From a virus (taxonomy: Duplodnaviria > Caudoviricetes): a DNA stretch of 48,771 bases. The position numbers were made by a program, and so were the translations under genes. Under the pieces are notes generated by a model. That model saw nothing but the letters and a program-made list of their open reading frames with translations, was not told the DNA's origin and searched no databases. The first letter of the stretch is position 1, and every line of letters begins with the position of its first letter. Location: positions 1 to 48,771 of the IMG/VR virus record IMGVR_UViG_3300030104_005458. One strand, 5' to 3'. Shown here piece by piece: positions 8,998-46,063 of the stretch.

Positions 8998-9016
8998 ATG
9001 TTACAATAATGTTACA
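8998..9016 (-). promoter_or_regulatory. Tandem TGTAACAT-TAT-TGTAACAT element upstream of the fibre genes
   Basis: ATGTTACAATAATGTTACA on + strand, identical at 22702 and 25711. Confidence 0.8.
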
Positions 9017-9032
9017 TTAAAAATAAAAAAAG

Positions 9033-12000
9033 TTAATCTACTATATTAAAAGTTTTGTTAAACGCTTCTTTATCTCTATCTGAAAAATATTCTTCTTCAG
9101 CTTTGTATTTATTTAAAAACATATTTTGCAATTCCTCTACGCTATAAGATGGTAAGGTCTTTTTCACTTCTCTTACAAAGTCTACTCTTTCTTCTTCCGT
9201 TGTAATTTCATCATTGAATTCTGCATCATATAAATCAAATAAAAGAGGGCTGTATAATTCATTAAACAATTTATTTCTTACATATTTTTGAATATTAGTT
9301 TTTATATGCCTTATTTCTTTTCTCTTTTGAAAATCAGTTTTTGATTGGTAGTTGGGGTCATTTAACAAACTATTTATAATATTGTAAGTTGTTTGTCCTG
9401 AAATTTTTATAAGAGCATAATGTTCTTCTTGAGTAAGATTTATTTGGCTTTGCTCTTTACCATATAAAATTGGTCTAACGCCAGTAAACTTTTTTTCTTG
9501 GTCAAAAAATAATCTTTGTATTTCAGAATATACAGGGTCTTCTGTTTTTTTAGTAATTCTAAAAGCGTATAAACCGCCAACAGGGTCTGGTTTAGGTATC
9601 TCATTACCAAAAGCATCTAGAGCTGGTAAATTTGTTTTTCCTTCTGTAAACCAAGGTAAGTTTTTTTCAATATTACTATTTATATAGTCTAAAGTTGTGT
9701 TATTTTCGTTTATATCTCTTTTCTTTAAAGACTTTCTTCTTACGGGGTCAATAATGCTGTCTATTTGCCTTGAAAATCCCGGTATAAATGTTCCAGATAC
9801 AGTCCTTATTGCCCAAGTTTCTAAATCTTGCCTAGAATCTAATATTTTAAAAATATCCCCTACTCCTGTAAAAAATGGATTCTCAGCAAATGACAAGAGC
9901 ATTTCTTTTGTCCCATTATAAGTTTGTTTATATATGCGATTTGCAGCAGTATCTGATATTTTACCCTTTCTTACATTTTTATCAAATTCTTCATTTGTCC
10001 TATGATAAGAGTGTATTAATGTTATATAAGAAGATAGTGGTTCAAAACCCCTATAAGAAACAACTGTGCCATCATTTAATTCAATAGAATATTCTTGTTC
10101 ATTCATTACTGTCTTCATGTCTCTTTCTTCTGGGGAAAGTTGAGACCAGTCTCCATTAATTTTACCAGCAGATTCTTTTCCAATAATTTGATTTAATAGA
10201 TATATAGATGCTGCTCCTGTAGTTACTTTAGATAAATTTTCAGCCAAAGCCCTTGGACCTTGACCTTTTGGAGAAAAAGCATCTTTATAGGCATTTCTAG
10301 TTCCCTTTGTAAATGGTAAAAGATTTAATGGGGTATGTTCGTATGTGTATTTTAAAAGATTTACTGATGTATTATAAAATGGCACAATTATTTGAGCTAT
10401 TGCTCCAAGATAGTCATTTCTTAGCCTAATAGAATTAAATGAGCCTAATGGTCCTTCTATTTTTGATTGGAATGTAACTGCCTCACCGCCTTTTATTGCG
10501 CTTTCTAATAAATCAGGACTTAACATTTCTCTATCTAATATTTCTATTGCTCTTTGTTTTATTTCTAATTGAGTAGTAAGCCCCTCTCTTTCAATAGCCT
10601 GTCTTACCGCATTTTTTTTCATATAAGCATTTGTCATTGGTACTCTAAAAAGAATATCTAACATTCCTTGCAATCTTTGAAAAGTTCTAAGTCCAACCCC
10701 AACGAGTCCCGGAATATCTTTATTTGTAAACCCTTCTCTTCGGAAATACTTTGACTCTCTTAATGCAGAATCTTTTTCAAAAAGCATATCTAACATTAAC
10801 CTGCCAACATCACCGTTTCTAAAAGGTTGAAAAAATCCATTTACTTGCGCTCCAAGTTCTAATTTATTCATTTGACTTCTTGAGATATTTCCAAATTTTC
10901 CATTGGTAATCACATTTAAAACACCACTTCCGCTTCCAAGTATGTGGTTATATCCATATTCTATTGGCATTCTAACAAAAGAGTCTATTGTAGATATAGT
11001 GTTTCCAGCTAAACTTCTTACTAAAGAAGAACCTGTTGCTAATTTCATATTCCGACCAAGCTCTGCTAACATATGTAATTTACTTCTGTTGCCTTCTTTG
11101 GCTTGCTTAGTTAAATCATCTAGCATAGCAAGAAAATCAGGATAGTCTGCTAGATTTTCTTTGTATTTCTCAAAAGCAGGTAATTTTTCAGCTAACAACT
11201 CTCTTAGGTATCTCATGTTTCTAGCAGGTTCTGATATATACGCTTTTACAAAATCCATTGAGCGCATTACATTGTCTAGTTGTTTTTGGCTTGCAGTTTT
11301 ATTTAGTCTCTCCATTAAGCCAAACATTAAATCAAGCCCCGCTGCTGTTTTTTCCGGCAAAGCATTTACTGAAAGTTTTTTTTGTCCAGCAACTTCAGAT
11401 ATAACTTCCTTTAAAATTCCAGCTTCTTGACTACCTCTTTTAATATCTTCAATAGTTCGAGTCCCTTTTGCCTTAATAGACCTTTTCCCACCGCCATATT
11501 CAGATAAAGACTCAAGTAAATCAACCATTGCCAGTCTTTTTTTATCTGGAGTTTTACCACTTATAGCTTCAATTCTTATATTATCAATATATTCATCTCG
11601 ATTTTTTCTTTTTGTCCTAGTAGGAGAAACTGACCCTTGTGAAGTCGGAATACTAGCATCTAACTCCCTTGAAAGCTCAAAAGCATTTTCTACAAAAGCC
11701 CTATCCGCTAAATCTTTATAGTTTTTACTAGCATATGCTAGCATTTCTTTTGGTGCGCCTTCTTCTTTTAGTCGTTTAATTAAATTTTTCTTACTAAGCT
11801 TTAGCTCAGTTTCTCCACGCTTCCATATTTCTTTTATATTTCTAGAAAGCTGTGCGTCTATTGCTTTTTGCTTTGCAGATTTTTTTATTTTTCCACCAAT
11901 TTGACCACTTGACGTTTGACTGAGTATTAATTTAGCAGAATCTTTAATTAACTCTTTTGTTGTCATTATTTCTGCTATATTTCTTTGAGAGCGCTCCATA

Positions 12001-14859: not shown

Positions 14860-14861
14860 TG

Positions 14862-15323: not shown

Positions 15324-15334
15324 AATATTACTCC

Positions 15335-21241: not shown

Positions 21242-22687
21242 TTAAACCAGCTTAAGAACTGCGTGTGTTTGTTCATTACGAATCTCAACACCAGCTTCCA
21301 TTAGCCATTCGTCAGTTTGACCATCACGACCATCTTTTACGATGTCAGAACGAAGTTGCATATCGCGACCAGCCAAAGGACGAACTGCAAAGTTCGCCGG
21401 GTCAATCGCAACCGCATAATCTTCATATGCACCTTTAAGATATGGATGTGGGATAAACTCAAGTTCACCAACAGCACCAAGATAAGAGCGAACCCTTAAA
21501 CCAGATTTTGTTATTTCACCTGTGTTAAAATTCCCAGTATCTCCAGCTCTAGTCATAGAAGCCATTTTTACGAGCCACTTATTTGATGCAAACACAGTTT
21601 TCTTCATCGAACCTGATACCATATCAGAAAAGATGTATTCACATACTGCATCAAACTGAGCAAGTGTTCCACTACTATTATTAAGCTGTAGATTAGAATC
21701 AGCATAGCCATTTAAAGAGGAAATAGAGCCAGCAGAACCCCCAAGACCAATTCCTTGGAATTTTCTACTTGGATTTTCTTGGCTAGCATCTAAAGAGATT
21801 GCGCCATTTGTTAAAATAGACCACTCAATATCACCTTTAATTTTTGCCAATTTCCTAGCCTGTAAGCGAGATAGTTCTGAACCACCATAATGCTTAGAAG
21901 CTTTAGCTGTACCAGTTACTGTATAAGGCTCGCGAAAAATTTGCGTACAGTTTTTCAACCTACGAACTTTTTTACGAGTTTCTACACCAACTGCTGAACC
22001 TTCAGCAATTCCTGCAACACCATTTTCACGCATGAAATAATCAGCGTCAGCAATATCTGCTAAAGTCATACTGCCTTTAACATTATGCCCGTAAAACGAT
22101 TTTGCAACGCCAGCGTCATAAAATTGACCGGCATTGGCAACGTATTCTAAAGTAAGAATACCCGCAGCATCAGGAGTTTTTAAGGTTGTTGAAGAAGCTT
22201 CAACATTATAAGCATCTAAACTAGCGTGAGCATGCGCGCCAAGAAACTGAACCATTTTATCAGTTGCACTAGCATGGTCTACTTGTTTTCCAACTGCAAT
22301 GCAAATAAGATGCGTAACATCAGTCTCAAGAGCTGCACTACCGCCAGAAACACTAGCACTATAGATTCCGCCAGCTTCAAACATTTCCATTTGAGCTTGT
22401 CGGTCAACTATAAGTATTGTCTTTGCGCCGTTTGCTCCACCTGTTGCTGTGTCAGCTACATTTGCAGTTTTGAAGTTGAACTTTTCGCTTTTTTTAATCA
22501 TGTACTCGTCTTCCATCCACTCAAAAATAGGGACTGGAGTCACAACTGACTTCATTCCGAACAGAGAGAAAATGGGAGTAACATTGGGGTTGTAGTAATG
22601 GATTTTTGACCCAAGTTCTAAGACTTGTCTTTGAGACGCATCAGAAAACTGTAGGGCAGTTCCAGTACCATAAGTAGTATTTGCCAT
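21242..22687 (-). CDS. Major capsid protein (SU10/DUF5309-like, HK97 fold) with large insertion
   Basis: FEWMEDE, NCTQIFREPYTVTGT, DGQTDEWLMEAGVEIRNE motifs; AAGGAG RBS; follows scaffold. Confidence 0.85.
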   Translation of the reverse strand: MANTTYGTGTALQFSDASQRQVLELGSKIHYYNPNVTPIFSLFGMKSVVTPVPIFEWMEDEYMIKKSEKFNFKTANVADTATGGANGAKTILIVDRQAQMEMFEAGGIYSASVSGGSAALETDVTHLICIAVGKQVDHASATDKMVQFLGAHAHASLDAYNVEASSTTLKTPDAAGILTLEYVANAGQFYDAGVAKSFYGHNVKGSMTLADIADADYFMRENGVAGIAEGSAVGVETRKKVRRLKNCTQIFREPYTVTGTAKASKHYGGSELSRLQARKLAKIKGDIEWSILTNGAISLDASQENPSRKFQGIGLGGSAGSISSLNGYADSNLQLNNSSGTLAQFDAVCEYIFSDMVSGSMKKTVFASNKWLVKMASMTRAGDTGNFNTGEITKSGLRVRSYLGAVGELEFIPHPYLKGAYEDYAVAIDPANFAVRPLAGRDMQLRSDIVKDGRDGQTDEWLMEAGVEIRNEQTHAVLKLV

Positions 22688-22701
22688 TAGGCTACTCCTT
22701 T

Positions 22702-22720
22702 ATGTTACAATAATGTTACA
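22702..22720 (-). promoter_or_regulatory. Tandem TGTAACAT element abutting the capsid RBS
   Basis: ATGTTACAATAATGTTACA on + strand. Confidence 0.8.
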
Positions 22721-22751
22721 ACCCGAATAAAAAAAGGGGGGGGCTATAACA

Positions 22752-23666
22752 CTATGTATTAGTATTATTAAATTCCATAATCCCTTTCCAAAAATCGTCT
22801 AAAGCTTTTTCTTCTGGTTCTGCGACGGCAGGTGCGCTACCGCTAACTGATGCAGCACTATTCTGCTTGTTCTTTACCTTAGGAGCTGGCTCTTTCGGAG
22901 TTTCCGGTTGAGAATTATGCCCATTAGATAAAGTTTTCCAGACGTTTACCAAGTTCTCCTGAGTTACATTATTTGGGTCAGCCATAAATTGTCTATAATC
23001 AACAATTTCTGTATCGCTTAACCCCATTTTCTGCAATTCTGCGGTTTCAGCGTCAAATGCCTGAGACTCACTTAGCTCAGACTTTAACTTTTCTACCTCT
23101 TGCATGGCTTGAACAGCGCCTTGACGAATAAGCCATTCATCTTGCTGTTTGCGCCATTGTGCGGAGCTAGAGTTATCAATGCTTTCATCGAGAATATCAT
23201 AATCTTCTGGCTTAACCGGAGGTGCATTTAAGTCCTGTTGTTTTTCTTGTACTGTTTCTGTGAGTTTTTGAACTACATCAGGATTCTTAGCAAGGTATTC
23301 ATCTAACTGTGCTAGCTTATCAAACTTTTGTTTTTGAGAATCCCATTCGTTTCTATCCTTATCGGATTTTGACTGTAGGGATTTATAAGCTTCTGCAAGT
23401 TTTTGAACGCCTTCCTCGTCATTCTTAAATTTATTCTCAATTAACCATTGCTCAATCTGTGATTGCGTTTCTGGTTCTTTATCTACTTTCTCATCAGATG
23501 TAGTTTCTTGAACTTCTTCTGCTTTCTCCTCTTTTGCAGTTTCTACCGCTTCTTGTTGAGGTTCTTCAACTTCTTGAGAAGAGCCTGAGTTGAATTCATC
23601 TAATTCAGCCATAAGGTTATCTTCATTCATTTCTTCTACCTGATTATTCTGGTCTTCTTTTGTCAT
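22752..23666 (-). CDS. Capsid scaffolding protein
   Basis: Acidic coiled coil, KLAEAYKSLQSK motif, between portal and capsid. Confidence 0.75.
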   Translation of the reverse strand: MTKEDQNNQVEEMNEDNLMAELDEFNSGSSQEVEEPQQEAVETAKEEKAEEVQETTSDEKVDKEPETQSQIEQWLIENKFKNDEEGVQKLAEAYKSLQSKSDKDRNEWDSQKQKFDKLAQLDEYLAKNPDVVQKLTETVQEKQQDLNAPPVKPEDYDILDESIDNSSSAQWRKQQDEWLIRQGAVQAMQEVEKLKSELSESQAFDAETAELQKMGLSDTEIVDYRQFMADPNNVTQENLVNVWKTLSNGHNSQPETPKEPAPKVKNKQNSAASVSGSAPAVAEPEEKALDDFWKGIMEFNNTNT

Positions 23667-23691
23667 TACGATGCTCCTTTAAAGTTATCCG

Positions 23692-25698
23692 CTATGCTTG
23701 CGAAGCTTTGGTTTCTGAGTTAACCGCTTGTTTTAAGCTAGACAAATCCTCGCTGACCATGCGGGTTTTGTCTCTCTGTCGTGCTTGCTCCAGCTTTGCG
23801 TTTGATTTAATGTTGCTAACCGCTTCCGAAACCGGCTTGGTAGCTTCACTAATTTCAGCACGCATATTAGCATGGAACACTTCACGCTCTCGAGTTTGCA
23901 AGTCGCCTTGCATTCTCTTAAGTTCTTCCTGCGCTTGTTGTAATTGCGCTTGTAAATTTGCTATTTCCCCCATTCTCTGCATTAAAGACGCTTTATCTAT
24001 GTCGCCTTTCATATTCATAATGACTTGCGTTTTATCATAAATACCTGCATTTAAGAGAGTTAAATCTTTTTGTAGTTCTGCCATAGGAGATTTAGACCTA
24101 GTAGAACCCACAACAACTCTAACATCAAATTGAGCCGTTTGCATATCATACAATCTTTTTACTGCTCCGGTCTTATCATCAATAACCGGAATATTTAACT
24201 GCACTTCACTTTCATCTCCAACTGGACTTACAATTCGCAATGTCCTTTGTTGGTCATACACGCTAGGCATCCATTCAACTATTACTTTAGCTGAACGCGT
24301 TAACATGTCATATATAGGCAATATCTTCCAGTTCTGTTTTCTAGAACTTGATTCATCCATTATTTGAGCTTCTCCAACAGTTCCCGGTGCGCCCTGAGAG
24401 TTACCTTGGAGGAATTTATATGCGCCAAAAACTGTTTCTATATCAATTTCATATCTTGATTTTTCAGTATACAACTGAGAGGAAACAGCTGGCGGTGCGA
24501 ATTCTTTTATTTTGCCAGAGGCGAGCGCACCGGGATTTGCACGGATGATAGCGTTAGGGATGTGCCATTTTTGAATTTCACTAGCGTCAATCGCTCCATC
24601 TTCATAAAGGAGCTTAAAGTTTGTAGTAGCGTTGGTATGTGATATAATTAATGCCTCAGTTCTATTTAACATTCTCTGAGGTGTTTTAGCATGCCGAACA
24701 TCTCCACTTGGAAATGGATTTCCAGCATGCTCATTGCAAGCAACTGCTATTGGATATTCTGAAATTGGAAGTATTTCATCATACAAAACTGTATCTCCAA
24801 CAACAAAAACTTCTCTTACCTTTGTTTGATAAGCTAATTGCTCTGTAATAATTCCTTTTTCAAGAAAATCCTCATATTGCTCATCTTTAATTAATTCTTT
24901 GTACTCTTCTTTGGTATATAATTGATTCTTTCCGGTATTTTGGTCAAGTATCAATGCGTGAGGTACATTAACTTTTGTAAAGTAACAATATTTACGAACT
25001 CTTTCTTGATGGTCCAAAGCCATGTCCCCAGAAGTTTCAATATGGTCTCTAGAATATTTTCCTGACGATTTTTCATTTCTATCGTCATCATCTTTAGCTT
25101 CTTCTATCTCTTTGGCATAGTTTGGAAATAAAATCTTTAAATGTTCTTTTGTGTGAATATCTGAATAAATAATTGCGCTAGCATCAGAAAAATCAGGCAT
25201 TGAGCAATTCGGGTCAACAAAAATTGACTCTGGAGGCATTCTCTTAGCTTTAATACTTCCAAGACCGCCATCTGCTTGCCAATCTGGGTAGATATACATA
25301 CAAGCTATCCCTTTTACGATAAAATCCTTACACGCTTGACGAAAATGAACATCTCCATCAGAATCATACCAAATTTTATCTAACAGTTGGTCAAAAACAT
25401 AGGCAACATCATTATCTGTTTTTCCCACAGAATGAACATCCCACTCAGGAGCGGATGCTGCGATGTTAGCTAGTACTTGCTCAACGGCAGGGCGTATTTT
25501 ATTGTTAGCTTCGGGGGGTTGACCCACGCTGAGCAAGTAGTTCTTTTGAGATTTCGTCAACTGAGAACCGAGATAAAACTCATGGTCTTCAGCCATTTGA
25601 TAGCGGTACTCACTAGAACTACTTTCAAAGAGTAGATAGTCCGAGCGAACTTCTTCCGCCGTAATCTCTTTTGTGTCTAGCTTAGCTAAATTTAACAT
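23692..25698 (-). CDS. Portal protein (P22-like)
   Basis: FYLGSQ, NNKIRPAV, QRMLNR, FDVRVVVG motifs and C-terminal coiled-coil barrel. Confidence 0.9.
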   Translation of the reverse strand: MLNLAKLDTKEITAEEVRSDYLLFESSSSEYRYQMAEDHEFYLGSQLTKSQKNYLLSVGQPPEANNKIRPAVEQVLANIAASAPEWDVHSVGKTDNDVAYVFDQLLDKIWYDSDGDVHFRQACKDFIVKGIACMYIYPDWQADGGLGSIKAKRMPPESIFVDPNCSMPDFSDASAIIYSDIHTKEHLKILFPNYAKEIEEAKDDDDRNEKSSGKYSRDHIETSGDMALDHQERVRKYCYFTKVNVPHALILDQNTGKNQLYTKEEYKELIKDEQYEDFLEKGIITEQLAYQTKVREVFVVGDTVLYDEILPISEYPIAVACNEHAGNPFPSGDVRHAKTPQRMLNRTEALIISHTNATTNFKLLYEDGAIDASEIQKWHIPNAIIRANPGALASGKIKEFAPPAVSSQLYTEKSRYEIDIETVFGAYKFLQGNSQGAPGTVGEAQIMDESSSRKQNWKILPIYDMLTRSAKVIVEWMPSVYDQQRTLRIVSPVGDESEVQLNIPVIDDKTGAVKRLYDMQTAQFDVRVVVGSTRSKSPMAELQKDLTLLNAGIYDKTQVIMNMKGDIDKASLMQRMGEIANLQAQLQQAQEELKRMQGDLQTREREVFHANMRAEISEATKPVSEAVSNIKSNAKLEQARQRDKTRMVSEDLSSLKQAVNSETKASQA

Positions 25699-25710
25699 AT
25701 GTCTGAGGTA

Positions 25711-25729
25711 ATGTTACAATAATGTTACA
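25711..25729 (-). promoter_or_regulatory. Tandem TGTAACAT element upstream of the portal gene
   Basis: ATGTTACAATAATGTTACA on + strand. Confidence 0.8.
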
Positions 25730-25735
25730 GTATTA

Positions 25736-26116
25736 TCAAAATTTTTTGTTTAATAAAATTAAAGTACTAATTGGCGCCAAAATTATATCGCTTGTATTAT
25801 TATCTCCGCCCTTAACTATGCTAGCTAATTCGTTTAAATATAAATACTTAACAGCTTTTCTAAGTTTATCAACTTTAAATAACATTGAAAACTTAATATC
25901 TCCATCTATGGTAAAGTTATGTACCCACCATTTTGCATCTGTAATAGATATTCCACTTGGTTTTCCCCGAGAACGTATTTCAATCGCCATATTTCCAGTA
26001 TCTGCCCATATATCTCGCTCTGTTTTAACTTCAATAGAACCATCACCCTCGAAAAGTTCTTTTATTTTTTGTTCATAAATTTGACCAAAGTCTAGGTCAA
26101 TGTCGAAATTGCCCAT
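25736..26116 (-). CDS. PD-(D/E)XK-like nuclease-fold phage protein
   Basis: IEVKTE...TGNMAIE...GKPSGI...AKWW motifs. Confidence 0.6.
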   Translation of the reverse strand: MGNFDIDLDFGQIYEQKIKELFEGDGSIEVKTERDIWADTGNMAIEIRSRGKPSGISITDAKWWVHNFTIDGDIKFSMLFKVDKLRKAVKYLYLNELASIVKGGDNNTSDIILAPISTLILLNKKF

Positions 26117-27783
26117 TACGCCTCAATAAAATCAGACGCAGTAAAAGTTTGCCCTGTTTCCCAATCTACTTCCATAACCGGAAGTGGAGCCATCCATTCT
26201 CCATGCTCATTTTGTTCTACGTCAGGCGCCCAAATATCGTCAATCGCCCAACGTAAAGCATCTAGGGTATCTTTTTTAAACGTACCATGTTCTTTGAAGT
26301 TCAATAATTCTGTCTCTAGTTCTTCATGGTCTTCTTTTAAAAATACTGAATGAGATGCAAAGTGAGGTTGCATCTGTTTAATTCTGTAATACTTAGTCTT
26401 AATTGCTTGCCTAGTATTAATATTATAAAATCTGCCTGTAAGTTTAGAATGTCTTCTCACATAATCTGCTAGCATGACATGCCCTGTTTCCTCGATTTTA
26501 ATATCTTTTGGATTATATCTATCTGCTAGCTCAAAAATTCTATCAGCACCATCCATAGGAGCTACTTGTCCTCGAAAATAATCTAGGACATAAATATTAT
26601 ATTCTTTATCTACTGCAATAACCATAATTACAGTATAATCGGCTTTTACATTTTCACTCGACGCGGGGTCAACTCCTAAAAAAATATTTACAGGTAGCTT
26701 TGCTCTTCTGCCCCCGTCTGTTCTTAGAATAAAACTTTGCTTATCTTCATAGATATATTTTCCTTCCCAATAGCGCATATCTTTTTCTTTAAAGATTCTA
26801 AAGCTATCATCCACAGGAATATTTTGATATTCTTGATAAAAATAAGCTATATCGCCTTCAGACTTTAATCTTTCTTTTTCTGCAATTAACCATTCATAAG
26901 GTCTTCTATCTTCCCATAAAACCTTTACTTTTCCATTCTTGTCCTTAAATTCATTTCCTGTTGTTCCAAATTTCCCTTTAGGCATATCTTGTGGGATTGC
27001 TTGAAAAAATAAAGACTTCCAACCCTTGACTTTATAATTACCATCCTTATCGTAAGCTAGTGGACCTGCAATTCTATTCAAATATGCGTCCGTATCAACT
27101 ATTGTGCCTATAAATACAAGTTTCGCATCCCCAGAACCCGGAATAACCGCAGCGTTTAGCCAGCGCCGGAATTTATCACGAGCTGTAGGGGTAGTACTAT
27201 TTGACTCGCCTTCCCCATCATCAATAATCGTCAATGTAGGACGATAAGCACCATACTTTAATCCACGAACCTTTTGACCAGTACCACGAATTAAACATTT
27301 ACACATAATATTTGGTCTACCATTATCATCAAACGCGCCGATAACTTCTTTTTCTTCTTTTCCCCAGATAGCGCCTTTTCTATCTCCAAAAAAATAATGA
27401 ATCTTAGGGTTAAATTCTATTTCGTTCCCAATCGCCTCTAGATTATACTTAGACTGCATCTCTGATTCTGAAATAAGTAATAAAAATTTCTCTTCGCCGA
27501 ATAATATCCTATGTAAAGGGTAGATAAGATTAATAAATGTTGATTTTGCGTGGTCTCTTGGCGCCACTACGGCTAGTTTATCGCCTGACGCCATACCTAT
27601 TAAGGTTTTTGCTATTTCGCGGTGAAATTCGGGCGATTTGGAGCGCACATGGTAGTGCATCGAATTTTCTTCATCGCCAAATAATATTTCAGCAAACGTA
27701 AAAATGTCCAAATACATTGCTTGAAGCATTTCTACTTTTTGTTTTTCGGACAGCGCTTTTAATTTTTTTTCAACTTTCGCCAT
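26116..27783 (-). CDS. terL: Terminase large subunit
   Basis: APRDHAKST Walker A, IIDDGE Walker B, IGT coupling motif, GVDPA and DTLDAL nuclease motifs. Confidence 0.95.
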   Translation of the reverse strand: MAKVEKKLKALSEKQKVEMLQAMYLDIFTFAEILFGDEENSMHYHVRSKSPEFHREIAKTLIGMASGDKLAVVAPRDHAKSTFINLIYPLHRILFGEEKFLLLISESEMQSKYNLEAIGNEIEFNPKIHYFFGDRKGAIWGKEEKEVIGAFDDNGRPNIMCKCLIRGTGQKVRGLKYGAYRPTLTIIDDGEGESNSTTPTARDKFRRWLNAAVIPGSGDAKLVFIGTIVDTDAYLNRIAGPLAYDKDGNYKVKGWKSLFFQAIPQDMPKGKFGTTGNEFKDKNGKVKVLWEDRRPYEWLIAEKERLKSEGDIAYFYQEYQNIPVDDSFRIFKEKDMRYWEGKYIYEDKQSFILRTDGGRRAKLPVNIFLGVDPASSENVKADYTVIMVIAVDKEYNIYVLDYFRGQVAPMDGADRIFELADRYNPKDIKIEETGHVMLADYVRRHSKLTGRFYNINTRQAIKTKYYRIKQMQPHFASHSVFLKEDHEELETELLNFKEHGTFKKDTLDALRWAIDDIWAPDVEQNEHGEWMAPLPVMEVDWETGQTFTASDFIEA

Positions 27784-28069
27784 TCCGCCCTGTAAATGTT
27801 TCTATGTATTCAATTTGTTCCTTGTAAGAATCTATATCCTCTAAAAGAGTTAAAATAAATCTAGCAACATGACCATCAATCTCGTAATAAACATTGTTAA
27901 TGTTCATTAAGGCAAGTTCGTTTACATTGATTTCATCACTTTGAGACTGAGGCTGACTTATGTACCCCGTTGTCTTTACTGTTTTGTTTTGCTCCATATG
28001 TGGTTTCCGCAATGGTTTTTCGTACAGAAGATAATTTTTTAATGTCGCCATCAGATAAAGCGAATACAC
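27770..28069 (-). CDS. Hypothetical protein (true start probably downstream of the annotated one)
   Basis: 3' part fills the gap between the TerS-like gene and terL. Confidence 0.45.
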   Translation of the reverse strand: MYSLYLMATLKNYLLYEKPLRKPHMEQNKTVKTTGYISQPQSQSDEINVNELALMNINNVYYEIDGHVARFILTLLEDIDSYKEQIEYIETFTGRNGES

Positions 28070-28742
28070 CTTCGATTTGCTCTTCTTTCTTTTCTTTGGT
28101 AAGATGTCCTAGCATATCGCTTACGCGGTTTAGCGCATTTAATTTTGTTGCTGCGGGAGTATCTCCTTCAATTAAATCGCGATATTTGTCAGCAACATAA
28201 TCATCATCCATTCCCATCGCGCTTAGTTTTTCTCTCATGTTCATTGATATATACTCCCTGATGTGTTTTCTTTTCAGAATTGTCAACCCACGACGTAAGG
28301 CTTGCTCTGGGTTATTATCTTTATAAACAGATTGGTAAGCAAGAATAACGGATTCGGTATCCCACATGCCAAGCTTGTTTGTAATCCCATGTAAAAATAA
28401 AAAATCAACGAATGTTTTTTGCTTTGCAGTCGGTCTAACATCCTTAATTAAATCTCCCACATAACGATTATCTAAATCCCAATCATGTTGTTTTTGTGCG
28501 TAATAATGCTTTTTATGGCAACCGCGCTCTCCATAGCCTGTTCTGATAAAAATATATGGTTTTTTTGTGTTAGCAAATTTTTTTGTCTTTCTCCCCGTGC
28601 ATTGTATTACTTTTTTGTCCGCAGTTAGTATCCAATCGCCAATTTCGGCGTCTCTCCAGTTATCTACAGGGGTAATTCCACGCTTTTTTGCCTCTTTAAG
28701 AGAAAATTGGTCGAATTCTTTACCCCTGCAAGTAACTTTCAT
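27936..28742 (-). CDS. Terminase small subunit-like protein
   Basis: PTAKQKTFV...AYQSVY...KLNALNRVSDMLG pattern, upstream of terL. Confidence 0.6.
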   Translation of the reverse strand: MKVTCRGKEFDQFSLKEAKKRGITPVDNWRDAEIGDWILTADKKVIQCTGRKTKKFANTKKPYIFIRTGYGERGCHKKHYYAQKQHDWDLDNRYVGDLIKDVRPTAKQKTFVDFLFLHGITNKLGMWDTESVILAYQSVYKDNNPEQALRRGLTILKRKHIREYISMNMREKLSAMGMDDDYVADKYRDLIEGDTPAATKLNALNRVSDMLGHLTKEKKEEQIEGVFALSDGDIKKLSSVRKTIAETTYGAKQNSKDNGVHKSASVSK

Positions 28743-28746
28743 TGGA

Positions 28747-28944
28747 TTATCCCTGATAAGCCCCTTTTTCTTCTACTTTGTACGAAACATAGTCTTTTCC
28801 ACCTTGAGAAGTCTTCTTCCAGCCAGCAATCTTTACTTCTTTTCCGTTTATCTTACCCTGACCCGTGAAATCAGGTTGATTTTCACTCGTTTTGTTATCG
28901 TTGTCAAAAATAGAGAATGTGTTATCTTTTGGTTCAAATGGCAT
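28747..28944 (-). CDS. DUF736-like small ssDNA-binding-type protein
   Basis: NQPDFTG...VKIAGWKK...DYVS motif; AGGAG RBS. Confidence 0.65.
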   Translation of the reverse strand: MPFEPKDNTFSIFDNDNKTSENQPDFTGQGKINGKEVKIAGWKKTSQGGKDYVSYKVEEKGAYQG

Positions 28945-29043
28945 TTAACGCTCCTGTTTTTTTGTTAAAAAATAATTTCAAGCCCCGATTAGAATATAAC
29001 GATAATGTTACAGTAGTTAAAAGAGAAAAATGGTTGAATTCGC

Positions 29044-29128: not shown

Positions 29129-29196
29129 ATGGCAAGGCTATAGCTAAGCTATAGCAAAGCTATGGCAAAGCCATTTTTAAAATATGGCTTGGCTAT
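29129..29196. repeat. Iteron-like array ATRGC-N3-GCYAT, 11-bp period (4+1 units)
   Basis: Units at 29129, 29140, 29151, 29162, 29184; same unit as inside the initiator gene. Confidence 0.85.
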
Positions 29197-29226
29197 TTAA
29201 GTGTTGATATTGTTAGATATAAAAAG

Positions 29227-29267
29227 CTACTCCAAAACTACTCCCTGCCTACTCCCTAACTACTCCC
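29227..29267. repeat. CTACTCC x4, 11-bp period
   Basis: Units at 29227, 29238, 29249, 29260. Confidence 0.85.
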
Positions 29268-39647: not shown

Positions 39648-39896
39648 TCATTTTTTTTTATTACATTTATTACATATTTCTTTTTTTTTACCATAAGAAA
39701 CAAAATTGTCATAATATAGAAAAGTATCACCGGAATCTTTCCTCATCATCTCCCAACAACATTTACATTTTGGGCAATACTTTACTCTATTATCGGCTCT
39801 CCTTCCATCAAAATCTGTATAAGTGTTTTTTATGGGAGTGTAGTCTCTTTCGTTGCCCTTAAAAAGGGTATCCATCATATCAACCTCTTCTTTCAA
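39648..39896 (-). CDS. Zn-finger protein
   Basis: CPKC...CNKC. Confidence 0.65.
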   Translation of the reverse strand: MKEEVDMMDTLFKGNERDYTPIKNTYTDFDGRRADNRVKYCPKCKCCWEMMRKDSGDTFLYYDNFVSYGKKKEICNKCNKKK

Positions 39897-39960
39897 AATC
39901 TTTTTCTAAAAAACTTTGTCAGAGACATTTTTTTTACTTTAGCGCCAACCAAGCAAATAC

Positions 39961-40965
39961 CTACACTCCCATTTCTTGAAAAACATCTGATAATTTTGTG
40001 CTAGAACCATCTTTCGCAGCTGCGTTACCAGCTTCGCTGGTCCTTGTGCTAGCTTGAACAGCAGGAGCTGTGGTAGTTTGCTCTGCTGTTCTAGCTTTCT
40101 TATCTCTTTCCAGTAATTCTAGTTCTAGTAAAGCCATTTTCTTTGACTGATATCTACCATCATTACATGATTCACATAATTCATTGGTTAAATTTTTAAC
40201 TTGTTGAGGTTTTTCATGTCTACATTCAGTACACATATAATCTATTTTTTTAGCAATTTTTAAATTATCTACGCCATTATCTCCAAACAATTTCTTAAAA
40301 TCATCATCAAATCTTTCTTGGTGTAGCCAAGTACTAGCCATTGGAATAAATTGTGAATCTGTTCCTTGCTTTTTCCAATATCGTATATAATTAATAAGTC
40401 CTTCTAAAATAATATCTTTTTTAATACCGCTTTTCCTAATAGATATATATTTCTTCATAGCACTTGCACGACCATCACTTCTAGGATATAAATCCCAAAA
40501 TTCATTTAAAAATTCTTTTTCTAATTCTTTATTTACATTAACCTTTTTTCTTTTTACTACTTCACCTTCTTCTTCTACTTCTTTATTGAATGGCTTAGCT
40601 ATAGCTTTGCTATGGCTTTGCCATCTTGTTTTTGCACCTTTTTTCCCATTCGCACTCATCCGTTCTCTATAAGCAATCATATTTCCGCGCTCTGTTTCTA
40701 ATCTATTGTTATATAATCTACCATCTCTTTCAATAAAGCAATTCATTACCACTTGCCAATCACTATCAAAATCGGGATGATTACCACACAATATTCTTAT
40801 TTTTAATAAATCACTTGGCAATGAGCCTTCTATCCATTCATAAGCCAAAAGAGTTATATACATTCCTCTCTGTGCCATAGTCATTGTTGTAACATTTAAG
40901 TCAGATAAAAAATCGCTAGCATAAAATTGGAATGCCGGCGCCTTTCCTAATTTTTTATTTTCCAT
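39961..40965 (-). CDS. Replication initiator (DUF1376/YdaU-like N-terminus, helical C-domain, Zn ribbon)
   Basis: PAFQFYASDFL, RGMYITLL, LYNNRL; FWDLYPR...FIPMASTWLHQERF; internal iterons. Confidence 0.8.
   Translation of the reverse strand: MENKKLGKAPAFQFYASDFLSDLNVTTMTMAQRGMYITLLAYEWIEGSLPSDLLKIRILCGNHPDFDSDWQVVMNCFIERDGRLYNNRLETERGNMIAYRERMSANGKKGAKTRWQSHSKAIAKPFNKEVEEEGEVVKRKKVNVNKELEKEFLNEFWDLYPRSDGRASAMKKYISIRKSGIKKDIILEGLINYIRYWKKQGTDSQFIPMASTWLHQERFDDDFKKLFGDNGVDNLKIAKKIDYMCTECRHEKPQQVKNLTNELCESCNDGRYQSKKMALLELELLERDKKARTAEQTTTAPAVQASTRTSEAGNAAAKDGSSTKLSDVFQEMGV
40590..40624. repeat. Iterons of the putative replication origin within the initiator gene
   Basis: ATGGCTTAGCT ATAGCTTTGCT ATGGCTTTGCC AT next to a purine-skewed AT-rich tract; lambda O-type arrangement. 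Confidence 0.75.
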
Positions 40966-41164
40966 TTGTGTTTTCTCCGGGTATTATGTTTTGTATTTTT
41001 ACTGAATGATGGGTTACTTTAGGAAATCTTGCTACTATAAAAACAATTTCTCCATTTATTGAGGCAACTTCTCCACTAACGTATGATTCTTCTCCATTGG
41101 CGCCCATAACTTTAGCAGTTACTGTATCGCCTATTTTAATCATTTTCTTGAATTCTACGCTCAA
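40955..41164 (-). CDS. Small SH3/KOW-like beta protein
   Basis: IKIGDTV...GEV..I pattern. Confidence 0.55.
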   Translation of the reverse strand: MSVEFKKMIKIGDTVTAKVMGANGEESYVSGEVASINGEIVFIVARFPKVTHHSVKIQNIIPGENTNGK

Positions 41165-41537
41165 TATCAGCCATCCTTTCTTGTTCTATTTCTCTTATTT
41201 CCTGTTCCCTGTAATTTGTTTTATCCGGGTCTTCAATTAATTCTAAAAAATCGTCAAAAGTAAGTATAGCATATATCGTGCCTCTGTCTTCTTTAACCAC
41301 TTGAACATCAACATTGTCTGTATTTGGTTTTAACCATTTTGCTATATTTTTTCTTACTTTGCATTGGACTCTCCACTCTTTATCTTTTCCATCTAATATC
41401 GCATCCACTTCTTCAGTATGACCCAATGAAAGACCGTTGCTAGCATAAGCCCTTTCAGCACCAATCTGGAGTTCTCTGGCTCTATTAACAACTTCTCTTT
41501 CAAATCGATTCCCCTTTTGCTTACTTCTACTAGGCAT
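41136..41537 (-). CDS. Holliday junction resolvase (Hjc-type PD-(D/E)XK)
   Basis: SKQKGNRFEREV...VD...VQCK motif. Confidence 0.75.
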   Translation of the reverse strand: MPSRSKQKGNRFEREVVNRARELQIGAERAYASNGLSLGHTEEVDAILDGKDKEWRVQCKVRKNIAKWLKPNTDNVDVQVVKEDRGTIYAILTFDDFLELIEDPDKTNYREQEIREIEQERMADIERRIQEND

Positions 41538-41621
41538 TATAAACTCCTATAATGGGGGCAAGCCCATGACGTTGAAAACTTGCCCCCGGATTTGTGTGAC
41601 CAAGAAGGAATGAGGATAAAA

Positions 41622-41870
41622 TCACACAAGTTCAAGATTGTAGTTATCTCCTATAGTAACTTGCTCAAGATAAATGTATTTAGCGTAAGTGCTATTTTTA
41701 CCATTTACCATTTTTGTAGCTATATTATGCCCCTCACGACGTAATCTTAATATTACATCCGACAACCTTGTTATTCTATATTCAGTTATAGCAGTCCAAG
41801 ATGTAATCGTTTTATTCTCCTTAAGGTGCTTTAAAACCTTCTCTTTTTGACCATTAGAACGGCAAGCCAT
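41622..41870 (-). CDS. Winged-helix DNA-binding protein
   Basis: QKEKVLKHL...IT...RLSDVILRLRREGHNI; AAGGAG precedes ATG at 41870. Confidence 0.75.
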   Translation of the reverse strand: MACRSNGQKEKVLKHLKENKTITSWTAITEYRITRLSDVILRLRREGHNIATKMVNGKNSTYAKYIYLEQVTIGDNYNLELV

Positions 41871-42570
41871 CGCTATCTCCTTCATCGATAAGAGTCTCGG
41901 CATCCACCATAGGCTCAGAATTAAAATCCATCTGATGCTGAATAGATTCATCTTCGTGTTTTTCATCTTTCGCAATGTTACTTGAACCATTTTCAAGGCT
42001 AGATGATGCTCTTGCGGTAATCTCTCCCATAGCCATCATTCTATACTTATCATTGCTTGAGTTATTACTTAGCCATGTAATGTAATCCAATGGTAAGTCG
42101 CACCACATTTCTCCCTTGTGCTTGCCGAAGTTTATAATCGAATTTCTCATATCATCAGTATGAATGTAATTACTTACATCTTCGCCATTGTTAGTCGTTC
42201 TAGAACTATTGCGCGCTGCGGGTGATTGTTCTAGCTTGTTTTGTTGTGATATAGCGTTGGCAACTTCATCAGCAGAGGCAAATTCAGTTCCACCAAATCC
42301 GGCACTTGCAAGCGCTCTACCAATAGCAGAAGTCTCGCAGTTTTCAAGAGCAGATGTTTTATTAATCATGCTACTATCATAAACCTCTTCAGCATGACCG
42401 GTATATACATTATCTCCAACAGAAATTGTAGCTTTCATTACCACTTTATTTTCTTCAGTAAAACATATTTTTGTCTTAACGCTTTTTACTGCATCCTTAT
42501 GCTCTTCGTGAAAAAGATTAACTCTTTCAGCGACTGTCCGGTATTCTTTGCCATGTATTTTTACAGACAT
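41854..42570 (-). CDS. Single-strand annealing protein (Rad52/Erf-like) with C-terminal FGKHKG domain and SSB-like tail
   Basis: ALENCETSAIGRAL, ASADEV, INFGKHKG...LPLDYITWL, ends DSDGLPF. Confidence 0.75.
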   Translation of the reverse strand: MSVKIHGKEYRTVAERVNLFHEEHKDAVKSVKTKICFTEENKVVMKATISVGDNVYTGHAEEVYDSSMINKTSALENCETSAIGRALASAGFGGTEFASADEVANAISQQNKLEQSPAARNSSRTTNNGEDVSNYIHTDDMRNSIINFGKHKGEMWCDLPLDYITWLSNNSSNDKYRMMAMGEITARASSSLENGSSNIAKDEKHEDESIQHQMDFNSEPMVDAETLIDEGDSDGLPF

Positions 42571-42572
42571 AG

Positions 42573-43106
42573 TTATTCCTCCGTTAGGTTATTGGTTGTT
42601 GTTTTAAATGAAAATTTTGTCTCCACTTCCTCTGAACATATGTCCGGAGCATCTCCCCATACTTTTATGTGTTCTGAAATAGCTTTTCTATCCGGTTTTT
42701 CTATTACACGAGTAGGAATAGAATTTTTAAATGAAAAAGCCATCAAAGCCTCATCGTCAGCAAATGTCTTCTTTGTTCGAGTAGTAAGTCGAAGAACTCC
42801 ATTAGGTAGTTTATTTGTTTTCTTGCCGGAGATTTTATTTTCTGATTGCATGTGGATTTCTAGTAAGTTTGCCCTATATCGTATTTGCCTTTCAACAGAG
42901 TCTATTCTTCGGTCATAAAACTCAGAAGATTCTTCTTGCCTAAGTTTTAATACTTCAATTTCTTTTTCTAATTGCCCTATCTTCCATAGCAGTTGGTCAG
43001 CGTGAATGTCTTTTATTTGGACTTGTTCCTCATTAATAACATATGTGTTATCTTCGGATTCTAATTCGTCAAGAGCAATTAATTGGCTATCAAGTTTTTC
43101 GCTCAT
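42573..43106 (-). CDS. Mu Gam-like DNA end-protection protein
   Basis: Long coiled coil followed by KTNKLPNGVL and EKPDRKAI. Confidence 0.6.
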   Translation of the reverse strand: MSEKLDSQLIALDELESEDNTYVINEEQVQIKDIHADQLLWKIGQLEKEIEVLKLRQEESSEFYDRRIDSVERQIRYRANLLEIHMQSENKISGKKTNKLPNGVLRLTTRTKKTFADDEALMAFSFKNSIPTRVIEKPDRKAISEHIKVWGDAPDICSEEVETKFSFKTTTNNLTEE

Positions 43107-43190
43107 TTAGCACCTCTTTTAAATGGGGATTCAAAAAACTTATATACACCACGAATAACTGCATCCATGAATAAATTTTTTGATTTACGC

Positions 43191-43391
43191 TTATAAGTTC
43201 TTTTTTTTCTCATTAGCCTTCTCCGTTAGTAAGATTAATTTTTGATTTGTTTCTTCCGGAGCAACAACATTAAATCCAAGATTTTCTGCTAATTTGTAAA
43301 TTGTGTAATACAAATTTTGAATATCATTATCGCTCGTTTTTTTTCCTCGCTCAATTCTTAACTGCAAAGCGTTCTCCTTAGTTGACATCAA
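43191..43391 (-). CDS. Hypothetical protein
   Basis: ORF in the operon. Confidence 0.55.
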   Translation of the reverse strand: MMSTKENALQLRIERGKKTSDNDIQNLYYTIYKLAENLGFNVVAPEETNQKLILLTEKANEKKKNL

Positions 43392-43578
43392 TTCCCTTAG
43401 TAACTATTTGGTTGAAGTATTGGCACTTTCCACAATCTGCTACACAATCTTTGTTAGCAAAATTTGAATCGTAGACCATGTTTAACTTTCCTTCTTTTCT
43501 GACAAACATAACTCCTAAACATTTTCCAACATTGTAATTAGCACAATGCTTACGAGCAACCGACTCTGTTTTCGTCAT
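43378..43578 (-). CDS. Cysteine-rich VLP-like domain protein
   Basis: CANY...C...C...CQYF..IV; AGGAGG RBS. Confidence 0.65.
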   Translation of the reverse strand: MTKTESVARKHCANYNVGKCLGVMFVRKEGKLNMVYDSNFANKDCVADCGKCQYFNQIVTKGIDVN

Positions 43579-43635
43579 CTCTACTGCTACCTCCTTTAAT
43601 TATTAGTTCTTTCATATACATTCAAGAACTAATAA

Positions 43636-43824
43636 TTAAATGGTAGCTAGTGGCTTGTATTCCGTTTTATTTACAAACTCAAATAACTCAGCTTTCATAA
43701 TGATAAAATTTTTACCATTTGGCTTGCTAGCTTTTAATTTTCCCGTTTGTATGTATTGCCTTACAGTTCCTTTTGAAACTTTTAGTTCGTCGGCAACTTG
43801 TGAAACAGTTAGAAAATCTTGCAT
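43636..43824 (-). CDS. xis: Excisionase/Cox-like HTH protein
   Basis: LTVSQVADELKVSKGTVRQYIQTGKLKASK; divergent from repressor-int. Confidence 0.8.
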   Translation of the reverse strand: MQDFLTVSQVADELKVSKGTVRQYIQTGKLKASKPNGKNFIIMKAELFEFVNKTEYKPLATI

Positions 43825-43994
43825 ATTTCCTCCATTTTTATTTGGTTTTTTGTGTAGTTTTGTGTATGTTTGTGTATTATTTAAAGCATTTAATTAAGTT
43901 TATTAACATTATGTGAATTTATATCACTTTTAGTTAATAAAAAAACACTTTTTGTTGTTTAAAACCACTTTTTGAGTTTTTTAGGAGTTACATT
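43825..43994. promoter_or_regulatory. Divergent lysis/lysogeny switch region
   Basis: AT-rich gap between xis and repressor; TTTGTGTA x3 at 10-bp period; CACTTTT x3. Confidence 0.75.
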
Positions 43995-44795
43995 ATGACG
44001 GAAATGGATGTCCATTTTATTATTAATAAAATAAAATTAGAGCAAAATATCTATTCAGATTTTCAACTTGCTGAACTATTTGGAGTTTCTGCTTCAGCAG
44101 TTTCTAATTGGAAGCAACGGAAAAAAATGCCTTTATCTGTTCTTCAAAAATATTGCAATAGTAACAATAAAGTAATTGACGGATATTTAAATAATGTTGA
44201 ATTTTTAAAAACCACATCGATAAATAAAAAAAATCAAAATGTAAATAGTAACATCACAACAAAAACTAAGGATACTAAAATGGACATGGAGTATGTAGTT
44301 GAGCTACAGAAAGAAAAAATTAAAAGGCTAGAAAGTGACTTGGCGAGACACCGACAAGCTCCTTTTCAGTCTTCTCAATGGGATGATTTATCGTATCACA
44401 TCTATAGTGCTGTAGAGCTAACTTTTAAAGGTCTTACTGTAATGGGAAGAAAAATGACCGAATTAAAAGGAAAAAATAACATTGAAAAATATATGGGTTA
44501 TAATTCTGATGAAATAGATGATTTATGGCAAATAGGACAATTTTATGAAAATTTTAATGAACACCCTATTGACACTATACTATCGAAAAAATCAGCAAAT
44601 GAAATTGGGCAAAAAAACACATTATTACCTCATATATTTGAAAACCTAAAACACATGATAGGTAATCATTATATTCCTATGCCAATTAGCTTTGTTTGCA
44701 AAGATAAATCAATTTTACATTCTATTTGCTACAATAAGGTTGATTGGCGAAATAAACAAGTTTATAGTAAAACAGAGTTTATAATAGATGAGTAG
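43995..44795 (+). CDS. Phage repressor: CI-type HTH, coiled coil, PAS-like C-terminal domain
   Basis: QLAELFGVSASAVSNWKQR HTH; no S24 peptidase motif; AGGAG RBS. Confidence 0.75.
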   Translation: MTEMDVHFIINKIKLEQNIYSDFQLAELFGVSASAVSNWKQRKKMPLSVLQKYCNSNNKVIDGYLNNVEFLKTTSINKKNQNVNSNITTKTKDTKMDMEYVVELQKEKIKRLESDLARHRQAPFQSSQWDDLSYHIYSAVELTFKGLTVMGRKMTELKGKNNIEKYMGYNSDEIDDLWQIGQFYENFNEHPIDTILSKKSANEIGQKNTLLPHIFENLKHMIGNHYIPMPISFVCKDKSILHSICYNKVDWRNKQVYSKTEFIIDE

Positions 44796-45795
44796 ATTAT
44801 ATAAAAGAGGCGATAGTCCAAATTGGTGGTACACGCATGGAACACCGCCAACTAGAATAATGCGTAGCACCGGAACCTCTTCGCTTAAGCTAGCAAATAT
44901 GCTGAAGCGAAAATGGGATGAGGAGTTGTTTTTTAAAAAACACAATATTCCTCAAAAACAAAGAATTGACCTACAAGATATATGTGAAAAATATAAAAAA
45001 TACATGATGGACAAAAGGCAAGGTGGCAAAGGTATTGACTATGTAAAACAAAAACAAAAATATATTGATAATTTTTGCAATTTTATGATGATGTCAAAAA
45101 ATAGAAAAGCATTTGCATCTATTGATGCGGAAGATATAGACAGATATATAATACATAGATTAAAAAATAATAAAGTAACACCTAAAACAGTAAAAGATGA
45201 TGTTAGAGTAATTGGCTTACTGTTTGAGTATGCTATTAAATATAAATACTTTAACGAAGAAAATCCTTGCAATAATCCAGATATACCCAAGCATAAAGGA
45301 GTTAAAAGAAGACCTGTACCTGTTCAATTTGTGTTAGAAGCTTTAAAAGCAAAAGATGTAAAGCAATCAGATAAAGTTTTTTGGAGTATTTGTTATTATA
45401 CAGGGCTTAGAGCTAGCGACGCTGGAACGCTTTCAGAATCTCAAGTATTAAAAGATAGAATATTAATACATGACACAGACAAAGCAGATGTCCCCGTAGA
45501 AATACCGCTACACCCAAATCTTAAAAAACAAAATATAATTAATGTTTACACAGATAAATACGATAGAGATAAGTCTAGGGAAAGATTTCAAGCTAAATTA
45601 ATCGAGCTTGGATACAATGAACCGGCTGATTTACATAGCCTTAGACATACTTTTAATACCGTTATGCTAGAATCTGGACTTGGCAGCAAAGATAGAAAAA
45701 AATTGCTAGCACACTCAAGTGAAGAGGTAAATGCAGATATTTATACTCACGAAAATTATGATTTAATAAAATCTGTAATTAAAAAAATTCCTTAG
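44788..45795 (+). CDS. int: Tyrosine integrase
   Basis: YTGLRASD, HSLRH, LAHS, IYTH catalytic motifs; N-terminal arm-binding-like LYKRG..WW...RSTGT. Confidence 0.95.
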   Translation: MSRLYKRGDSPNWWYTHGTPPTRIMRSTGTSSLKLANMLKRKWDEELFFKKHNIPQKQRIDLQDICEKYKKYMMDKRQGGKGIDYVKQKQKYIDNFCNFMMMSKNRKAFASIDAEDIDRYIIHRLKNNKVTPKTVKDDVRVIGLLFEYAIKYKYFNEENPCNNPDIPKHKGVKRRPVPVQFVLEALKAKDVKQSDKVFWSICYYTGLRASDAGTLSESQVLKDRILIHDTDKADVPVEIPLHPNLKKQNIINVYTDKYDRDKSRERFQAKLIELGYNEPADLHSLRHTFNTVMLESGLGSKDRKKLLAHSSEEVNADIYTHENYDLIKSVIKKIP

Positions 45796-45887
45796 ACTGT
45801 AACATTTTTGTATTAGCTGTAGCATTTTTGTAACAACGCAAAGCTCTACAAAGCAATGCAAACAAAACCAACAATAATTCTAGAAAC

Positions 45888-45918
45888 TAAAAAAGCCCTC
45901 GATAAACGAAGGCTTTTA
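45888..45918 (-). terminator. Intrinsic terminator downstream of the tRNA fragment
   Basis: AAAAGCCTTCG-TTTAT-CGAGGGCTTTTTT on the minus strand. Confidence 0.75.
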
Positions 45919-45920
45919 GT

Positions 45921-45965
45921 GTAGCGGGGGAAGGATTCGAACCTCCGACCTTTGGGTTATGAGCC
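45921..45965 (-). other. attP core: 3' half of initiator tRNA-Met(CAT)
   Basis: GGCTCATAACCCAAAGGTCGGAGGTTCGAATCCTTCCCCCGCTAC = anticodon loop, T-arm and 3' acceptor strand; 5' half absent. Confidence 0.9.
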
Positions 45966-46063
45966 AAGCAAACATCTAACAATATTAAGACTTAGAAGAA
46001 TTTGGCACATTTATGTAACATGTTTTATTCAAATGTTACAATTTTGCTACAAAATCACCCGTT

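Follow-up and report, generated by a model that had tools for sequence, protein, structure and literature searches.

The paired repeat and its late copies

The genome analysed here, called the window throughout, is a complete circular phage record from seawater (IMG/VR record IMGVR_UViG_3300030104_005458, positions 1 to 48,771; Caudoviricetes) of 48,771 bases with a terminal repeat of 184 nucleotides (nt). It contains copies of a paired repeat, TGTARCA-N4-TGTARCA, both in the arms of its attachment site (attP), beside the gene for a tyrosine integrase (Int), and in front of its virion genes. The minus strand holds a P22-like portal, terminases, the major capsid and laminin-G fibres, and a cassette of cI, int and attP is placed opposite an xis-like gene. 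No close relative of this phage was found among annotated phages. A first-pass annotation suggested that a single protein, perhaps Int, binds both sets of repeats and so couples recombination to virion gene expression. The genes, the late copies and the predicted promoters beneath them are listed here, with lengths in amino acids (aa) and open reading frames as ORFs.

2065..8910, minus strand: 108-aa ORF and two laminin-G fibre-like genes, downstream of the copy at 8998
8998..9016, minus strand: fibre copy, paired repeat TGTAACATTATTGTAACAT, between a 1709-aa virion gene and the 108-aa ORF/fibre block
21242..28944, minus strand: head and packaging genes (65-aa ORF, terS, terL, 126-aa ORF, portal, scaffold-position ORF, major capsid), downstream of repeat copies
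22702..22720, minus strand: capsid-leader copy, adjoining the Shine-Dalgarno (SD) sequence; its first half is the 3' arm of a predicted mRNA hairpin
25711-25729, minus strand: portal copy, over the spacer and -10 of the predicted promoter 25711..25739
25711..25739, minus strand: predicted σ70-type portal promoter, TTGATA-17-TAACAT, with a short leader lacking an SD
28994-29012, minus strand: terminase-operon copy, a degenerate pair within the predicted promoter 28993..29021
28993..29021, minus strand: predicted promoter of the 65-aa ORF/terS/terL operon, TTTAAC-17-TATATT
43636..43824, minus strand: Xis-like HTH_17 protein, retained in relatives without the cassette
43995..44795, plus strand: CI-like repressor with a PF07022 helix-turn-helix, overlapping int by 8 nt
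44788..45795, plus strand: tyrosine integrase of 335 aa with the R/HxxR/H/Y catalytic residues present

From the 8-nt overlap of cI and int we infer that they are co-transcribed.

The 19-mer ATGTTACAATAATGTTACA is letter-perfect at 8998, 22702 and 25711, and recurs with three mismatches at 28994, at 45818 on the minus strand and at 46033. These six matches in the window compare with 0.06 expected, and six were reached in none of 100 shuffles; the octamer occurs 12 times against 2.3 expected. The identity of the three perfect copies and the degenerate fourth, as first annotated, is thus confirmed, and so are the descriptions of their surroundings. Each of the four late copies lies between genes and has TGTAACA on the transcribed (minus) strand. 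They precede, respectively, the 108-aa ORF with the laminin-G fibres, the major capsid, the portal, and the 65-aa ORF ahead of terS/terL. The capsid copy does abut its SD, with AAAGGAG directly next. In IMG/VR, three of the 13 exact matches to the 19-mer (L006, L007, L010) are in contigs that could not be linked to this group of phages, two of them as tandem arrays.

The attachment site and its integrase

45798..45835, plus strand: attP left arm, two direct pairs, putative arm-type Int sites
45921..45965, minus strand: att core, identical to the 3' part of a tRNA-Met gene
46003..46051, no strand assigned: attP right arm, one direct pair (46003-46020) and one inverted pair (46034-46051)

Four pairs with a spacing of 11 base pairs (bp) were located around the att core, at 45798/45809, 45818/45829, 46003/46014 and, inverted, 46034-46051. 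The first-pass annotation had these as repeats of one octamer. The pairs are there, and their halves are not identical: several are degenerate (TGTAGCA, TGTATTA, TGGCACA) and the exact octamer is present in only three of the eight. The tRNA origin that it gave for the core holds. The core sequence, 45921-45965, has exact matches in 38 genome stretches, and the three that were run in ARAGORN (L121, L127, L136) are tRNA-Met.

Related integrases indicate what the pairs are for. Eleven integrases of 62-93% identity were found, one of which is cut by a contig end; in all ten whose downstream DNA was inspected, TGTARCA-N4-TGTARCA pairs are present on both att arms, and in four of the ten a different tRNA-like core stands between them. 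More distant members of the family have other words in the same arrangement. Nine of 12 integrases of 25-30% identity are followed directly by 11-bp pairs, read by eye, with words such as TGTGACC, TGTCCTA, TGTGGCG and CCGGTATT, and four phages with integrases of 29-38% identity likewise show 11-bp pairs of other words after int. The pair word follows the integrase clade and therefore behaves as arm-type sites do. The close and distant comparisons thus support the earlier reading of the attP repeats as arm-type sites for Int.

Int has the catalytic domain PF00589 (E 4e-13) with the R, HxxR, H/W and Y residues, and a model of residues 1-56 gives three strands plus a helix, the topology of arm-binding domains, at a pLDDT of 91.6. 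One of 19 homologous N-termini matches Arm-DNA-bind_2, weakly (E 0.004). For a relative of 38% identity, P0012, the full model has full-length lambda Int as its best match. Like lambda-type integrases, the system combines a catalytic domain with paired direct repeats on both sides of the core that vary with the integrase clade. The paired TGTARCA repeat is likely to be the binding site of the N-terminal arm domain of Int, as judged from these comparisons.

Predicted late promoters under the repeat

The portal and terminase-operon copies are placed in the same way on their predicted promoters, with half-site 2 overlapping the -10 and half-site 1 in the spacer. The frame of two hexamers separated by 16/17 bp is kept in relatives both with int (int+) and without it (int-less), among 16 lineage representatives per promoter. 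A promoter spacer needs no fixed sequence. No minus-strand promoter was called at the fibre copy; this copy, 8998..9016, is likely to be an Int operator also. With at least two of the late copies over predicted promoters, the better fit is occlusion of initiation, rather than the integrase roadblock of late genes that had been suggested. The roadblock is not favoured, and was dropped as the main mechanism since two copies cover predicted promoter elements. RNA assemblies covered only small shares of the late region.

Two other features of these leaders were observed. Only 12-13 nt separate the predicted -10 from the portal ATG (25699-25711), with no SD in close relatives, and translation of the portal gene would be near-leaderless. 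The fibre leader contains a conserved element at 8925-8975, GATG..CCATG...GGGCGGTAAG..CACA, which is kept in int+ and int-less relatives and in the distant G352, and which looks like an RNA structure.

Association with the cI-int-attP cassette

A family search found an integrase in only 4 of 35 related records; G010 is also int+, its int being cut by a contig end. The presence or absence of the cassette was determined by reading the DNA upstream of xis. In cassette-less relatives cI, int and attP have been lost together, and one contig joint skips the cassette (43640 to 46151). A 43-aa relic of cI is present in L271/L333, so deletion is the direction of change in that lineage. The xis-like gene is kept in G001, G004, G005, G006, G009, G011, G012, G013, G022 and L333, where cI, int and attP are gone. 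That most relatives keep xis without the cassette suggests repeated loss of lysogeny and another role for the Xis-like protein.

Do the late copies go with the cassette? The half-site in the spacer is intact, at one mismatch or fewer, in 6/6 int+ and 4/14 int-less portal leaders, and in 8/8 int+ and 5/16 int-less terminase-operon leaders, counts that include near-duplicates and, for the terminase, leave out G004, the leader of which is cut by a contig end. By lineage it is intact in 5/5 int+ and 4/11 int-less lineages at each promoter (p=0.029), and at both promoters in 5/5 lineages with cI-int and 3/11 without the cassette (p=0.013); the number of lineages is small, and each has one hand-chosen representative. 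The bases flanking this half-site vary among int+ phages while the half-site is invariant. A quick terL tree has the int+ phages in two separate clades and every loss on an int-less branch.

The fibre copy is intact in int+ G003 and G008, eroded in the int-less sister G011, and absent in G005 and G009. In most of the genes tested, G011 and the window are 94-99% identical; the fibre and terminase half-sites of G011 are eroded, with the flanks almost unchanged. It had been noted at the outset that late motifs kept by relatives lacking int would speak against a shared binding protein. Such retention is complete in three of the 11 int-less lineages and partial in two. Of the full keepers, G001 is matched by an int+ sister with 96-98% nucleotide identity in early genes and L329 by one with 88-94%, and L271/L333 has the cI relic; the nearest int+ relatives of the full losers are at 62-78% in vwa. 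By this comparison the int-less keepers are recent deletion derivatives, except for the partial keeper G009, which has no close int+ sister.

A second word in a second phage

By tblastn, int (38%) is all that the complete genome G348 has in common with the window, though its gene order is the same and its portal belongs to the same PHROG family. The att pairs of G348 read AGTCACG/TGTCACA. One exact TGTCACA pair is found between a 3117-aa virion gene and a fibre-like block, and a pair with two mismatches ahead of the terminase operon, which are the same two slots as in the window. There is no exact TGTARCA pair in G348 and no exact TGTCACA pair in the four genomes of the window clade that were tested, and such a pair arises in one of 200 shuffles. 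The capsid relatives of G348 do not extend as far as its leaders for the terminase or the fibres.

In a blind scan by script, further copies of an att pair were recovered from G000, G003, G008 and G348. None came from the 17 other integrase records; candidate pairs were present in 11 of these, not all of them true arm sites. There was no copy in G350 or G351, and G349 had only a duplicated att end and one match in a coding region. Hits with two mismatches in G356/G357 have another context and were not counted as cases of reuse.

An arm-like pair with three mismatches stands just before the xis-like gene of this second phage (G348:C1:35791-35808), where Int might also control xis. Separately, the terminase match of the distant relative G352 (G352:C1:33673-35286) contains one in-frame TAG.

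The capsid copy in a predicted mRNA hairpin

22706..22758, minus strand: predicted mRNA hairpin between the scaffold stop and the capsid start, G-U rich, with compensatory changes

The capsid copy is a different case. Its leader folds better on the mRNA strand than antisense (-20.7 vs -12.1 kcal/mol). In an alignment of 23 distinct hairpin-bearing leaders, five of the 13 pairs change on both sides and 96.9% of cells are paired; compensatory cells number 17, against 5.7 in shuffles, a count inflated by relatedness among leaders that were hand-selected. The copy is intact in one of four int+ and three of five int-less scorable leaders, respaced to 8 bp in int+ G003 and missing in int+ L315. The capsid copy as an Int operator was therefore dropped: it does not track int and is held by a covarying mRNA hairpin. 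Its membership of one int-linked set of sites, as first annotated, is not borne out, since it is kept in int-less phages and missing or respaced in int+ ones. It appears to owe its maintenance mainly to the mRNA hairpin, with or without binding of Int in addition. The hairpin would be a processing or stabilising element that contains, or was built from, the repeat. The second half of the copy, before the SD, is also kept, and this the hairpin does not account for.

Proposed repression of late operons by an intact integrase

These comparisons give real support to the idea that one protein, probably Int, acts on both sets of sites. Our interpretation, to which we assign a probability of roughly 0.55, is that the intact Int represses the late promoters of the portal, the terminase operon and the fibre block in the lysogen. 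No repeat pair is present in the cI/xis switch region of eight int+ phages. As the binder, Int would need the fewest assumptions when compared with CI, Xis or a host regulator.

The mechanism we propose is as follows. The late promoters, being apparently of the host σ70 type, would leak in the lysogen. Int would be made with CI from one transcript, and its N-terminal domain would bind the pairs and occupy the spacer and -10. Bound Int would keep host RNA polymerase off the terminase and portal promoters, and probably off the fibre block too. On induction, cI-int expression would fall while Int is titrated by replicating genomes and Xis-directed intasomes, and the late genes would open only after the switch.

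A wider proposal, which we put forward tentatively and hold to be somewhat less probable, is that an old group of marine podovirus-like temperate phages uses a working Int as a second repressor, reserved for the late operons. In this view the promoters of the terminase and fibre genes would carry the arm word of Int itself, changed in step with Int between phages that have no other detectable protein similarity. Titration of Int would replace a late activator and couple assembly to the recombination state.

The capsid counts and the few, hand-chosen lineages described above weigh against repression by Int, as do the following points. With cI, int and attP lost together, the association cannot separate Int from CI. 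L333 keeps all copies, and its nearest sampled int+ relative is at 68-84%; G009, an int-less partial keeper, retains the terminase copy with its nearest int+ relatives at 70-84%; and G025, the portal protein of which is identical to that of int-less L329, keeps the fibre, capsid and portal copies. The promoter calls are 9/12 to consensus, the scan is not above chance for the region (31 vs 26 sites) and the portal TTGA also contains the upstream stop codon, so the late promoters remain predictions. The isolated N-terminal domain of Int gave no significant Pfam, PDB-sequence or Foldseek match. The replicate provided by G348 is a single genome, the words TGTAACA and TGTCACA differ by one base, and the att site of G348 also holds a TGTAACA half. 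Three phages with integrases related at 29-34% show no reuse. Finally, in G348 the copies are reversed in orientation and immediately precede a -35-like TTGAAA, a position that does not imply repression there.

Other candidate binders and roles

Which other proteins might bind the late pairs? A host regulator of the OmpR/PhoB family is the alternative that survives best, and we consider it unlikely. It would tie virion genes to the state of the host, with the likeness to att partly coincidence and the control dropped by lytic derivatives. Direct repeats at 11 bp are the architecture of this family (PhoB, WalR and ArcA boxes), and the late pairs share that layout with host Pho-type boxes, which is a further point against Int.

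The identity of the host is itself tentative, because it rests on core matches and on integrases: among 301 genomes of the candidate phylum, 11 carry a member of this integrase family, and for two of these a position next to tRNA-Met was confirmed. Two of the stretches that match the att core are titled Neomarinimicrobiota. No close prophage was found in the 301 genomes; an integrated copy of the window phage was searched for and not found, and no host junction could be assigned in the contigs covering the locus.

By eye, 16 of 29 pst-operon leader regions of this phylum have 11-bp repeats, for example CCTAACA, CTTAACC, TTTAACA and TTTTACA. The pst leader of L494 has TGTAAAA-N4-TGTAAAA on one (reverse) strand, within one mismatch per half, and one host genome has an exact pair upstream of a large secreted protein. 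Against this, no pst leader has TG at positions 1-2 on the gene strand; the words there are of the YYTAAC(A/C) type or TTTTACA, not TGTAACA, with the host assignment tentative. The strict pair is present in one of 301 genomes, a count that degenerate regulons would escape and that may concern the wrong host. The loose pair gave 17 hits against 11 for controls in 121 genomes, with at most two per genome and several att-like by eye. Nor would a host regulator account for the agreement, phage by phage, between the late word and the att word. As observations in their own right, L551-L567, L493, L494, L516 and L521 carry probable Pho boxes, 11-bp repeats of CCTAACA, CTTAACC or TTTTACA upstream of pst.

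Binding by CI, with the late pairs as distal operators and attP also occupied, is improbable. CI is lost with int, and its predicted recognition helix is similar among int+ phages. Opposed to this are the empty cI/xis control region noted above, a CI only 27-48% identical across phages with an invariant motif, and a different repressor in G348, of 106 aa, with no tblastn hit to the CI of the window. CI as the binder would also leave Int without arm sites.

Equally improbable, in our view, is that Int binds the late copies without repressing, the copies being sinks, looping anchors or activating sites. The positions upstream of a -35-like hexamer in G348 and the absence of a called promoter at the fibre copy fit this. 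In the window clade, however, two copies cover the spacer and -10, and their register is conserved.

A Cox-like role for the Xis-like HTH_17 protein, as directionality factor and regulator binding both sets, is more doubtful again. Cox binds attP and promoters (PMC3936717), and the arm-like pair before the xis-like gene of G348 could be read in this way. Yet int-less phages retain Xis at 53-96% identity, even where the spacer half-site is gone; ACACAAA before xis and ACAAA(C/G) in the left arm are better candidates for Xis sites; and the pairs flank both att arms symmetrically.

That the late copies are merely promoter and hairpin sequence matching att by chance is very improbable: TAACAT does double as a -10 and the hairpin explains the capsid copy, but the spacer half-site is invariant in int+ lineages while its neighbours vary, and reuse is replicated in G348 and seen in 0/17 background records.

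Other repeats in the window

Three further sets of repeats were observed. Upstream of xis are three ACACAAA repeats spaced at 10 bp (43849-43875), well kept in int+ phages and candidates for Xis or CI sites. Iteron-like 11-bp repeats (29129-29188 and 40590-40627), conserved in relatives, are found both within the gene of the replication initiator and in the divergent spacer ahead of the terminase operon; they may mark a second origin or a control site bound by the initiator. At 29207-29266 a 12-mer common to attP (45974), which we take to be IHF-like, stands ahead of four CTACTCC repeats with a spacing of 11 bp; G001, G003 and G011 have these repeats, and more distant relatives do not.

Comparison with known systems

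The late genes of lambda are controlled by Q antitermination. The integrase of the window resembles lambda Int (1Z1B) in its putative three-domain layout, paired direct repeats on both arms of the core and an Xis-like partner, and the window differs in its arm-type copies outside att, on predicted late promoters.

IntS of KplE1 acts as a repressor of its own promoter, which lies in attL (Panis et al. 2010, PMC2951348). It too is an active tRNA-targeting tyrosine integrase, and its sites overlap a σ70 promoter, with one arm-type site over the -10 (PMC2951348). Its promoter is its own and inside attL, whereas the late sites of the window are 17-37 kb from att (the fibre copy about 12 kb around the circle) and its targets would be virion and packaging operons. 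Here attP is downstream of int, and there is no pair upstream of cI-int or at its promoter.

The second relevant system is MrpR (YopR/SroF) of SPbeta, a catalytically dead master repressor with a recombinase fold that acts at SPBRE (PMC10516654). The likeness is that of a tyrosine-recombinase fold serving as a lysogeny repressor at dispersed intergenic repeats (PMC10516654). MrpR, however, has only the CB and CAT domains, is without four of the seven catalytic residues and performs no recombination, and SPbeta integrates by a serine recombinase (PMC10516654). Int of the window keeps its catalytic residues and an adjacent attP, and would bind through an extra N-terminal domain. The authors of the MrpR work also mention integrases that repress their own synthesis (PMC10516654).

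P2 Cox is one protein for both recombination and transcription control; it is a directionality factor acting at the Pc switch and at P4 PLL (PMC3936717), in contrast to an integrase on its own late operons, the candidate here. The stoperators of Cluster A mycobacteriophages, asymmetric repeats placed between genes in one orientation, keep lytic genes silent in the lysogen (PMC9262239). They are bound by the repressor, present in many copies and proposed to stop elongation (PMC9262239), whereas the window has three or four copies, on predicted promoters and matching att arms. The four late copies of the window share one orientation, as stoperators do, and none is at the cI/xis switch.

In the literature searched, with subscription papers outside its scope, we found no case of an active integrase controlling virion or late operons, and nothing matching as a Pho-box or Marinimicrobia phage parallel. 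Autoregulation by an integrase (KplE1) and repression by a dead recombinase (MrpR) are thus known, and an intact Int on virion operons would be new. Integrases have so far been seen as recombination enzymes, with throttling of their own gene as their only known regulatory job. If the interpretation is correct, the stability of the lysogen, superinfection immunity and the timing of late genes would all hang on the concentration of one protein, and these phages would plausibly represent a stage between ordinary integrases and master repressors that derive from recombinases, as MrpR does.

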